Source: an uncultured Chlamydiae bacterium (GTDB lineage: Bacteria; Chlamydiota; Chlamydiia; Chlamydiales; Parachlamydiaceae). From it: 64,000 nucleotides of DNA. The notes below the pieces were generated by a model that was not told the DNA's origin, searched no databases, and saw only the letters and a program-made list of their open reading frames with translations. The DNA lies in the NCBI GenBank assembly GCA_963754655.1, contig CAVWGN010000001.1:768001-832000 (forward strand), read 5' to 3'. The translations under genes were made by a program, and so were the position numbers. Below are positions 56,697-59,009 of this stretch, in pieces (the stretch's first letter is position 1; the number at the start of each line of letters is the position of its first letter).

Positions 56697-59009
56697 TTAT
56701 TCTTTCCATTCATCATCATTTATCTGTTGAGCATCATCTCCTTCTATATCTCTTCTAAGACTTTTCGCTGCGGCCATGATGCTGAGTTGAATGCGCTCAT
56801 TGTCTGGTAGGCTTTCCCATACTTTTTTCAAAGTCTCATCTTGAGTGATTTGTTTGGTTGTATAACCTTCTTTTTCAATTAATTGTTTGATTCTTGTGTA
56901 AGGATCTTGTTTCTGTATGGGATGATCACCAATAAAGTCCGTTTTATTCAATTTCCTTCCTTTTTTGATTTGATTTAAAAGTGTCTCTTGATTTTCAGAT
57001 GCTTTAATAGGTTGTTCTTTAGTAAGATCTCGTTTATTTAATTGACTTGCTCCATTTTTGATTTGATCAAAGAGAGCCTCTCGACCTTCTGGTTTTACCT
57101 CTTGAATATTGGTCTTGTTCAAGCCTTGTTCTCTCCTTCTCTGGATCTGCTCAGCCAGAGAAAATGATTTTTCTTCTTGATCTTCGACAAGCTTAGGCTC
57201 AACATCAATCGCCTGATAATGTTCTTTATTAGGTGATTCTGTTGAATAGCCCATTGTTTGTTGTGGATGGGGAAGAGAGGGGGGTAAATCTTCAGGAGGA
57301 GGTGAGAAATCTTTTAATACTGCTATTTCGTCAGAAAAAGTTGGTGCTTTTTCTGTTGTTTCTTGTGGTTCAGGAGGCAATTGTAATTCTTCTGGTAGTA
57401 TGATTTCATTTTCTTCTGTCTGAGTTAACTCTTCTGTTAGTATAGGTGTGACCCGCTCTTTAACTTTGAGAGCTTGATTTAATTCCTCATGAAGCTTTAA
57501 TTTTTCAATTAATTCAAAAATATGATTAGTTTGGTATTTAAGTTTAGGAAAAGAAAAGGAAATTAAAGTCTTGAGTTGGTTCACATCATCCATTTCTTCA
57601 AATTTCTTGGGCAGAGAATCTGGTTTAAATGGACTATTTTTGACTTCCTTGGCAATTTCTTGGAGAGTAGAATGGATAGAGTCTTTAAGCTTTTGAGTCT
57701 GAGTAAAATCCTGAGGGACCTTTGTTTCCTGTGTTTGTTTTGCTTTCTCTGCATGCAGTGTTAAATTATCGCGGTAAAGCTTAAGCTCTTGACGTAAAAT
57801 ATTCATTTGATTTGCTGTTTTTTCTCTTAGGTCTAAGAAAGAGATTGCTTGCCTGCTTCTTTTTAGTTGTATGCTTAATTTTTGACAGTAAAGATCCTTT
57901 TGGTGCAGCCAACTCAATTCTTCATGATTAAATTTTGCAGTTTTCTTTATTTCTTTATAGGTCTCTCTTTGACCTTCTCGAACTTTATCGAGCTCTTGTA
58001 TTAAATAATCTTTGCCTTTAAAAAATCGATACGCAGCATCTATCACTTTATTGCCATAAATTGATTTCTCTAACTTAGAGATTCGATTGCATTCTTTTTT
58101 ATAGAGCGAGTATAAAGCTTCTAAAACTTCCTCTTGTTGACCTAAAGCTTGTATTCTTCTATCGTTTATGAAAAGAGTTCCATCCCATAATCGCTCAATA
58201 TAACCCTTTAAATCAGGAAAGGCAGATTTAAGTAATTGATGGATATCTTCACCGTTTAATCTTTCTTTTTTGAGAATTTGTTGTAATTCACTCTCTGCTG
58301 TTGGATGCAGAACTTCTTTCAGGGTTTCTACTAGAGCTTTCCTTTCCTCTCCGATCTTAGTAAAGTTCACCCATGTGCCTTGAAAGTAATAATCTTTCAT
58401 TGCGACTTCAATGTTAAGAAGCTTGTTGGTCACCTCTAATGTTCGTTCGAAGCCGGCAATAGTTTTTTCTAATTTCTGGATTTGTCCTGGCAAAGCGTCA
58501 TAAGTTAAATGCCTATCTGCTAATTCGATAGCGGTGCTTTCATGTTCTTTTAATTCCTGTAAATATGTTTTAGCTGTAGTTAATTTTTCACGCGCCCCTT
58601 TTAAATACCCAGCATTAATAGCTACCGTGTCCGCATTAGGAAATTTTCCAGCTAATTTTCTTTCTGCATGTGTTGCTTTTATTGTCCACTTCGATAATTG
58701 ATCGATCGCTTGTTTGGTACTCCCTATAAGCACATGAATACTTTCAGCTTGTTCTTGTTCAGATTGAGAAATTTTACCAAAAATTCTGTTAAAAAATTGC
58801 CCAATTTTATTCCAAATCGCTAAGTGCCGAGAAATAACAATAGATTTTAATCCAGGTTTGGCGCTTTCTTCAGAGCCGTTACCTTTTAATGTTTCGGTGG
58901 CAATCAACTGAGTTAGACTTTTATTAGAAGCCCTTGTATTTCCTGTTGCCTCTGAAGGAGAAGAAGTAGAATCAATAGGAAGTGAAGAAGGGGAATCATG
59001 TATATGCAT
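56697..59009 (-). CDS. Candidate T3SS effector: coiled coil + Pro-rich + 3 WH2-like + central/acidic (VCA-like) C-terminus
   Basis: Ser-rich N-terminus; PPPEDLPPSLPHP; LAEQIQRRREQGLNKT, REALFDQIKNGASQLNKR, ETLLNQIKKGRKLNKT; ends SIMAAAKSLRRDIEGDD..NDDEWKE*. Confidence 0.75.
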   Translation of the reverse strand: MHIHDSPSSLPIDSTSSPSEATGNTRASNKSLTQLIATETLKGNGSEESAKPGLKSIVISRHLAIWNKIGQFFNRIFGKISQSEQEQAESIHVLIGSTKQAIDQLSKWTIKATHAERKLAGKFPNADTVAINAGYLKGAREKLTTAKTYLQELKEHESTAIELADRHLTYDALPGQIQKLEKTIAGFERTLEVTNKLLNIEVAMKDYYFQGTWVNFTKIGEERKALVETLKEVLHPTAESELQQILKKERLNGEDIHQLLKSAFPDLKGYIERLWDGTLFINDRRIQALGQQEEVLEALYSLYKKECNRISKLEKSIYGNKVIDAAYRFFKGKDYLIQELDKVREGQRETYKEIKKTAKFNHEELSWLHQKDLYCQKLSIQLKRSRQAISFLDLREKTANQMNILRQELKLYRDNLTLHAEKAKQTQETKVPQDFTQTQKLKDSIHSTLQEIAKEVKNSPFKPDSLPKKFEEMDDVNQLKTLISFSFPKLKYQTNHIFELIEKLKLHEELNQALKVKERVTPILTEELTQTEENEIILPEELQLPPEPQETTEKAPTFSDEIAVLKDFSPPPEDLPPSLPHPQQTMGYSTESPNKEHYQAIDVEPKLVEDQEEKSFSLAEQIQRRREQGLNKTNIQEVKPEGREALFDQIKNGASQLNKRDLTKEQPIKASENQETLLNQIKKGRKLNKTDFIGDHPIQKQDPYTRIKQLIEKEGYTTKQITQDETLKKVWESLPDNERIQLSIMAAAKSLRRDIEGDDAQQINDDEWKE

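Follow-up and report, generated by a model that had tools for sequence, protein, structure and literature searches.

An open reading frame (ORF) encoding a candidate activator of host actin assembly was analysed in a 64,000-nucleotide stretch of DNA, called the window here, from an uncultured chlamydial bacterium of the family Parachlamydiaceae (assembly GCA_963754655.1, contig CAVWGN010000001.1, positions 768,001 to 832,000). The gene occupies positions 56697..59009 of the window on the minus strand, and the ORF list and its translation give one intact frame from ATG to TAA, with 770 amino acids plus the stop codon. The protein, hereafter P0001, represents a cluster of which it is the only member, and it is not named in any source. 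All of the parts described next are likewise encoded on the minus strand. Residues 1-62 (58824..59009) form a disordered, Ser/Thr/Pro-rich N-terminus with a predicted local distance difference test score (pLDDT) of 36-61. Residues 63-517 (57459..58823) form the all-helical domain that defines the family, which was modelled with AlphaFold2 (AF2) as tandem helical bundles. A disordered acidic linker with Pro motifs follows (residues 518-616, 57162..57458, pLDDT <50). The linker has a net charge of -17, contains the motifs LPPEPQ and SPPPEDLPPSLPHP, and includes a translated Pro-rich stretch at residues 543-583 (57261-57383). Three WH2 motifs come next: WH2-1 (SLAEQIQRRREQGLNKT, residues 617-633, 57111..57161), WH2-2 (REALFDQIKNGASQLNKR, residues 643-660, 57030..57083), and WH2-3 (NQETLLNQIKKGRKLNKT, residues 673-690, 56940..56993). 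A helical insert (residues 700-741, 56787..56912) then precedes the putative connector (C) helix (LSIMAAAKSLRRDIEG, residues 742-757, 56739..56786), which bears the basic pair R752-R753. The protein ends with an acidic tail (DDAQQINDDEWKE, residues 758-770, 56700..56738) whose last residues read ...NDDEWKE. The codon of Trp768 lies at 56706-56708. The order and the positions of the Pro-rich segment, the three WH2 motifs, the C helix, and the acidic tail had been proposed in the original prediction, and they were confirmed by translating each interval.

Do these motifs amount to a VCA module of the WASP type? As shown by the Pfam search that the original prediction had called for, the WH2 profile (PF02205) matches P0001 in two stretches with an E-value of 5.8e-5 (23.0 bits). 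Pfam gave no family other than WH2 for P0001, and NCBIfam gave no match at E<=10. When P0001 was compared with 177,635 PDB sequences using phmmer, the single match was the three tandem W domains of N-WASP (3m3n_W, E 4e-5). Residues 617-709 of P0001 are in register with all three W domains in this alignment. WH2-1 pairs with the first W domain and is not called alone by Pfam. WH2-2 corresponds to the best Pfam stretch (residues 640-659), scores 17 bits in a six-frame scan of the bacterium's own genome, and pairs with the second W domain. WH2-3 is the second Pfam stretch (14.5 bits in the six-frame scan), pairs with the third W domain, and has an AF2 helix at residues 673-682. The three motifs span 74 residues (617-690) and are spaced by 9 and 12 residues, and no DNA-level tandem repeat lies beneath them. 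The top two places of the six-frame WH2 scan are both inside the effector gene. A third weak match (12.8 bits) was dismissed, as it sits in an acidic coiled-coil protein. Among 3,330 frames of the genome (stop to stop, at least 100 amino acids), six end with an acidic-Trp tail, and only P0001 adds a WH2 pattern to it. P0001 is also the sole frame of the 3,330 with at least three WH2 patterns within 120 amino acids.

The C helix (LSIMAAAKSLRRDI) is amphipathic and basic, and AF2 predicts a helix at residues 736-755 with pLDDT >94. In the full-length AF2 model, which was built with 33 sequences, residues 519-672 and 684-698 have pLDDT <50 and are thus predicted to be disordered. Residues ~700-757 were unexpectedly modelled as four helices at pLDDT 94-97, with the C helix as the fourth. 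The insert of residues 700-741 carries an extra LKKV and a W-E-x-L...E-R motif, the latter of which is also found in the closer relatives P0011, P0012, P0019, and P0023. According to these models, the insert may be a regulatory or docking unit, and the folded unit of residues 700-757 including the C helix may make the protein a regulated, autoinhibited nucleation-promoting factor (NPF). A two-chain prediction of autoinhibitory docking between the N-terminal domain (residues 60-520) and the tail (residues 695-770) scored 0.00 against a mark of 0.32, a result that speaks neither for nor against such docking. In summary, P0001 has WH2 motifs, a C helix with basic residues, an acidic end with Trp, and a weak Pro-rich region upstream, all of which are features of the VCA module.

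The whole module was compared with known structures using a MAFFT profile (A2) of seven tail modules from five proteins of the family. Searching the PDB with this profile gave 16 matches at E<=10, 15 of which are WH2 or VCA proteins. The best match is N-WASP in an Arp2/3-bound structure (6uhc_H, E 1.4e-6, residues 430-497), and it runs from the second WH2 through the C helix into the acidic part. For WAVE1, which was matched in a structure of the WAVE complex (3p8c_D, E 1.5e-4, residues 216-277), the match extends from V through A. Spire was also matched (3mn7_S, E 3e-5), and two CA-only N-WASP peptides are among the matches with weak E-values, while Cordon-bleu was matched weakly in the homolog-tail comparison with the PDB. 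In the A2 alignment, MAFFT paired the C helices of the homologs with residues 727-741 of P0001. This pairing was rejected, and residues 742-755 were preferred on the basis of the RR motif and the AF2 helix. In the same-genus homolog P0004 (L004:712-1263, minus strand), the complete WH2-C-acidic-Trp unit occurs twice, one copy after the other. When used alone, the last 72 residues of P0004 aligned over their whole length with the WAVE1 VCA, as far as a shared D-W-L at the end (E 0.038). These features hint at a host-derived origin or a duplication of the module.

Is the VCA-like tail common to the relatives of P0001? Searches of a word-indexed homolog database, using either the whole protein or residues 600-770, returned only the query itself. 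A related-loci search using P0001 found nothing, and the ESM Atlas gave no usable match. A search of 60 relatives' genomes with P0001 matched residues ~54-567 in four of them. Three full-length homologs are 23-25% identical to P0001, and each has a Pro-rich region, a WH2 motif, and a C helix by eye. The acidic Trp end is present in P0003 and P0004 and not in P0002. An N-domain-only alignment of five members (A3) was then made, and its profile was used for the later searches, so that the tail was excluded from the choice of members. Against 1.84 billion cluster representatives, this profile matched 52 proteins at E<=1e-3; 45 of these reach E<=1e-10, and 35 reach E<=1e-30. Most of them are 650-890 amino acids long with the helical domain at about residues 60-505, and the members are 18-39% identical to P0001. 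Ten members were looked up; all are annotated as 'hypothetical protein', and each is on one or two contigs. A full-length profile (A1) matched 8 of 73 genomes of Parachlamydiaceae, including the genome of the window. When a 400-genome sample of the phylum was scored with the N-domain profile, matches were found in four of 45 other genomes of Parachlamydiaceae and in none of 354 genomes outside it.

For counting the tails, I used the 46 best A3 rows (the 45 at E<=1e-10 and P0050 at 2.0e-10) together with P0002 and P0004, with P0005 and P0008 counted once. Thirty-eight of these 48 rows were assessable, having at least 100 residues past the N-domain, and the other ten are fragments that were set aside. 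A run of at least three Pro residues is present in 31 of the 38 tails, with runs of up to 11. A strict WH2 pattern is present in 28 tails, and a Trp within the last 15 residues with at least four Asp/Glu in the preceding ten is present in 27. The original prediction depended on homologs keeping the LxKT motifs and the terminal Trp, and the homologs, selected blind to the tail, do keep the WH2 motif and the near-terminal Trp, as these two counts show. When 30 tails were right-justified on the last Trp, a hydrophobic helix ending with RR or R-x was seen, followed by an acidic run. No more than two residues follow the Trp in 24 of these 30 members. Since the members are only 18-39% identical to P0001, the ordered motifs have survived a long divergence in otherwise disordered sequence. 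Two members exceed the Pfam WH2 cut-off of 23.1 bits, namely P0004 (31.0 bits) and P0011 (25.0 bits). Most members have zero or one strict WH2 pattern, and the triple WH2 is not a family-wide trait. A weaker Trp context was found at the ends of P0008 (SQDAEW), P0026, and P0044. A sub-group consisting of P0002 and the metagenome representatives P0009 and P0010 retains the poly-Pro, the WH2, and the C helix without the acidic Trp (P0010 ends with Phe). These three may be natural loss-of-A variants.

No counterpart of the N-terminal part was found in the WASP family. It was predicted originally that the N-terminus is Ser/Pro-rich, which agrees with the finding that 24 of the first 50 residues are Ser, Thr, Pro, Asn, or Gln. 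The corresponding number is 17-27 across the 23 members examined (P0001 and 22 others). No hydrophobic signal peptide or transmembrane segment was found in any of the 23 members, and the maximum KD19 of P0001 is 0.47. The disordered N-terminus is presumably a type III secretion signal. The middle part had been described as a long helical or coiled-coil region; instead of a coiled coil, it is a confidently folded all-helical domain. The AF2 model of the N-domain, made with five sequences, has a mean pLDDT of 88.4 and a pTM of 0.75, and consists of long helical hairpins and bundles. No PDB sequence was matched by the N-domain using phmmer, and a Foldseek search of the PDB with the N-domain model gave no match at E<=1e-3 (best TM-score 0.21). 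An alignment-free wide structure search brought up spectrin-repeat, syntaxin-Habc, and designed three-helix bundles with a best Z of 11.6, which is within noise because helical models reach Z ~13 by arrangement alone. Thus, the domain is described as tandem helical bundles, and no fold is assigned. WH1/EVH1, GBD/CRIB, SCAR-homology, WAHD1, and other WASP-family N-terminal domains were not found in P0001 by Pfam at E<=10.

The genome encodes a type III secretion system, as indicated by SctV (TIGR01399, 914.9 bits; cut-off 692.25) and SctJ (TIGR02544, 209.5 bits; cut-off 161.95). Two secretin-like frames are below the cut-off, and a Pfam HrpJ search of the genome was silent, as was its control. 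Parachlamydiaceae are symbionts and pathogens of free-living amoebae. LpxG, a lipid A enzyme first found in Chlamydia, is encoded in the window (402.8 bits; NCBIfam cut-off 350), and four TLC (ATP/ADP-type) nucleotide transporters are encoded in the genome. These genes fit an obligate intracellular chlamydia. A gene for a 430-amino-acid protein without any Pfam or NCBIfam family (59371-60663, plus strand) is divergently transcribed from the effector gene. In each of the four homologous loci whose flanks are long enough, it adjoins the effector gene. The neighbour is 47-61% identical across these loci, while the effector is 23-29% identical. Thus, the locus is orthologous and the effector is fast-evolving, and fast evolution is typical of host-interaction genes.

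I also found a paralog of 522 amino acids in the same genome, outside the window (contig 1, about 1,204,929-1,206,497; L026:1288-2856, plus strand). It shares the N-terminal ~200 residues with P0001 (BLASTP E 3e-6; profile E 7.9e-10). In the paralog, the tail is replaced by a Dbl-type RhoGEF domain (Pfam 35.4 bits; cut-off 27.6). Since one N-terminal module is joined to two different actin regulators of eukaryotic type, this suggests that the module is a delivery or targeting unit and that the host cytosol is where both proteins work. A eukaryote-type RhoGEF was not found described for a chlamydia in the main texts searched.

These results suggest, with a probability of about 0.7, that P0001 is an injected, most likely type III-secreted, direct activator of the Arp2/3 complex, that is, a stand-alone mimic of the WASP/WAVE NPFs. 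The proposed mechanism is as follows. The disordered N-terminus would serve as the secretion signal, and the helical N-domain would be a scaffold or targeting module particular to the family. Once the protein is in the host cytosol, each of the three WH2 motifs would bind one actin monomer, and the C helix and the acidic tail with Trp768 would bind and activate the Arp2/3 complex. Branched actin filaments would then arise at the location of the effector. The Pro-rich linker might supply profilin-actin or bind SH3 proteins. From the predicted protein, I infer its secretion, its binding of actin and Arp2/3, and the stage of infection at which it would act (entry, vacuole remodelling, or exit).

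Several observations weigh against this interpretation. The Pfam WH2 score of P0001 is 0.1 bit below the curated cut-off, its motifs read LNKT/LNKR rather than LKKT/V, and Pfam WH2 is reached at E<=0.01 in only seven of 33 full-length members; Pfam is, however, less sensitive for a motif as short as WH2. The Pro-rich segment lies where the original prediction placed it, but it is weak in P0001, with a Pro content of 13% in the linker and PPP as the longest run. The gap between WH2-3 and the C helix is 51 residues and holds the folded helical insert, and such a spacing is longer than in WASP-family proteins. Only 15 of the 38 assessable tails have all three strict patterns together. Phe replaces Trp at the end of P0010, P0017, and P0040, and an aromatic acidic end is missing in P0002, P0009, P0032, P0036, and P0045. 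Moreover, convergence and homology are indistinguishable for short linear motifs.

What else could such a protein do? An Arp2/3-independent nucleator or monomer sequesterer with tandem WH2 motifs, like VopL/VopF, Spire, Cordon-bleu, TarP, and RavH, would line up an actin seed with the WH2 motifs, and its C/A-like end would be incidental. The close spacing of three WH2 motifs in 74 residues, the match of the tail profile to Spire and the weaker one to Cordon-bleu, and the occurrence of such proteins in amoeba pathogens (RavH; PMC13481308) are all in line with this idea. It is nevertheless unlikely. What the family keeps is one WH2, the C helix, and the acidic Trp, and not the number of WH2 motifs; no dimerisation domain like the C-terminal domain of VopL was identified; and the profile alignment with PDB sequences extends beyond V through C and A. 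Thus, an Arp2/3 activator is favoured over a tandem-WH2 nucleator, since the family keeps C and A while a single WH2 is all that most of its members have. A smaller chance is given to an Arp2/3 decoy or inhibitor like Arpin, in which C/A would occupy the activator sites without delivering actin and damp phagocytosis or motility of the host. Known Arp2/3 inhibitors have the A motif without V and C, whereas V, C, and A are all present in P0001 in the order of an activator, and the members with the highest scores against Pfam WH2 and the VCA sequences of the PDB likewise have all three. The decoy idea draws on the acidic-Trp end, called the most conserved feature of the tail (27 of 38 members), on the lack of the strict WH2 pattern in ten of 38 members, and on the long insert between WH2-3 and the C helix, which could uncouple actin delivery from Arp2/3 binding.

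Slightly less probable again is an indirect activator whose C helix is a ligand of the GBD of host WASP/N-WASP and relieves autoinhibition, as do EspFu, TmeA of C. trachomatis, and NpeA of Brucella. The C helix of P0001 is predicted with confidence, and the VCA C helix is the natural ligand of the GBD and is mimicked by bacterial effectors including the chlamydial TmeA (PMC11253601). Such mimics need neither WH2 nor a terminal acidic Trp, yet both are conserved in the family, and a GBD-binding activity would be compatible with direct Arp2/3 activation rather than exclusive of it. It is also improbable, and somewhat more so, that P0001 has the same biochemistry without being injected, as a surface-exposed factor for the actin-based motility of cytosolic bacteria like RickA, ActA, and BimA. 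These closest functional analogues do work on the bacterial surface (PMC11077975, PMC13481308), and RickA likewise has no Sec signal (PMC11077975). However, no transmembrane, autotransporter, or anchor segment was found in P0001, and the genome has a type III secretion system. In addition, chlamydiae usually dwell in vacuoles, and the RhoGEF paralog with the same module makes sense only in the host cytosol. Finally, a structural coiled-coil protein with a low-complexity tail resembling VCA by chance is very improbable. The motifs are short, the Pfam WH2 score is just below the cut-off, and the database-wide word search with the tail returned only P0001. Against chance stand the ordered motifs kept at 18-39% identity, the two homologs above the Pfam WH2 cut-off, the 15 of 16 PDB matches of the tail profile that are WH2 or VCA proteins, and the combination of motifs that is unique in the proteome.

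If P0001 is a direct Arp2/3 activator, how does it compare with known systems? It resembles the VCA region of the WASP family (N-WASP, WAVE1/SCAR) in the order of the Pro-rich region, WH2, amphipathic basic C helix, and acidic end, with Trp zero to two residues from the C-terminus. The three WH2 motifs resemble those in the engineered tandem-W N-WASP construct of 3m3n. In contrast, the N-terminal 500 residues of P0001 are a bacterial-only helical domain, and the protein is not a member of the WASP, WAVE, or WASH families. The LNKT/LNKR motifs and the 51-residue spacer with the folded insert also set it apart from them.

Among bacterial proteins, RickA of Rickettsia mimics host NPFs and activates Arp2/3 directly (PMC11077975). 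Like P0001, RickA has an unrelated N-terminal part, a Pro-rich region, and a C-terminal WH2, and has no Sec signal (PMC11077975). On the other hand, RickA is from a different phylum, and no sequence relation to it was detected in the NCBIfam and Pfam searches, which gave P0001 no family except WH2 and included no direct comparison with a RickA sequence. RickA acts at the bacterial surface, whereas type III injection is likelier for P0001. VopL/VopF of Vibrio and RavH of Legionella are likewise secreted and Pro-rich with two or three WH2 or WH2-like motifs (PMC13481308), but they nucleate actin without Arp2/3 and do not have the C and A parts kept in the P0001 family. BimA of Burkholderia thailandensis and ActA of Listeria recruit and activate Arp2/3 via regions that are acidic or CA-like (PMC13481308). 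Both are motility factors that are anchored at the surface and differ in architecture, and no relation to P0001 was seen in the Pfam and NCBIfam searches. In excerpts of a source covering these proteins, Listeria, Rickettsia, and Burkholderia are the only bacteria named as having direct activators of Arp2/3 (PMC13481308).

TarP and TmeA are chlamydial type III effectors that drive actin assembly, as proposed for P0001. Neither of them is known to have a C helix combined with an acidic-Trp end. The WH2-like actin-binding domains of TarP nucleate actin, and TarP also has a Pro-rich region (PMC4222901), while TmeA activates N-WASP by mimicking the C helix of VCA (PMC11253601). Neither is described as a VCA protein in excerpts of these sources (PMC4222901 for TarP, PMC11253601 for TmeA). 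Thus, TarP nucleates alone and TmeA works via host N-WASP, whereas the P0001 family would bypass the host NPFs. The P0001 family was also found only in Parachlamydiaceae among the 400 scored genomes of the phylum. The original prediction knew of no such protein from environmental chlamydiae. In agreement with this, a literature search covering main texts and few subscription journals found no WH2 or VCA protein described in Parachlamydiaceae or other environmental chlamydiae.

It is about an even bet that the proteins found here make up a fast-evolving family of self-sufficient Arp2/3 activators of amoeba-associated chlamydiae, with the phylum's first direct NPF and the first case of type III delivery of a complete VCA. 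Their helical scaffold, which is also joined to a Dbl-type RhoGEF in the same genome, would be new, and the whole would form a modular host-derived 'actin toolkit'. The VCA module and its bacterial mimics are known; the bacterial family, the phylum, the scaffold, and probably the delivery route are new. Pathogenic Chlamydia reach Arp2/3 indirectly, with TarP nucleating actin alone and TmeA unlocking host N-WASP, according to the excerpts cited above. If the proposal is true, direct NPF mimicry arose in, or came from hosts into, a third intracellular lineage. The family would also provide a natural series for studying the requirements of Arp2/3 activation, made up of roughly 40 divergent VCA tails that differ in the number of WH2 motifs (one to three), in having one or two C-A units, and in ending with Trp or Phe. 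A Protochlamydia symbiont alters the motility and the phalloidin staining of amoebae, and excerpts of the report name no factor responsible (PMC4103550). The P0001 family would, if the proposal holds, offer a molecular handle on these changes in amoebal motility and actin distribution (PMC4103550). A shared module for delivery or targeting, as suggested by the RhoGEF paralog, could also aid the search for other effectors.

Some minor features of the locus were also noted. A promoter-like site consisting of TTTATA, an 18-nucleotide spacer, and TATAAT with TG (extended -10) lies at 59052..59081 on the minus strand, 43 nucleotides upstream of the ATG. In a consensus scan, it matches at 10 of 12 positions, but the region has no more promoter-like sites than expected from shuffled sequence, and the site is thus weak evidence. 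At 0.34-0.36, the GC content of the effector gene is only a little lower than in its neighbours (0.37-0.43), and composition thus does not clearly point to recent transfer. One soil-metagenome DNA run has a small share (0.11) of the sequence words of the gene, and no RNA run is listed as containing them. Two adjacent ORFs of 458 and 482 amino acids (52964-55788, plus strand) have no Pfam or NCBIfam family and are not beside the effector gene in the same-genus locus. A gene pair resembling BlaR1/M56 peptidase and BlaI/CopY-type repressor (61266-62701, minus strand) is kept beside the locus in a same-genus genome. An 821-amino-acid protein encoded at 19457-21922 (plus strand) has four 'choice-of-anchor Z' PGGG repeats (NCBIfam NF058597, 113.7 bits). 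Near the end of the window, an ORF at 63447-63944 (minus strand), whose frame continues to the window end, matches the mitochondrial carrier repeat of Pfam (Mito_carr, 35 bits; cut-off 22.3), which represents a eukaryote-type transporter in a bacterial genome.

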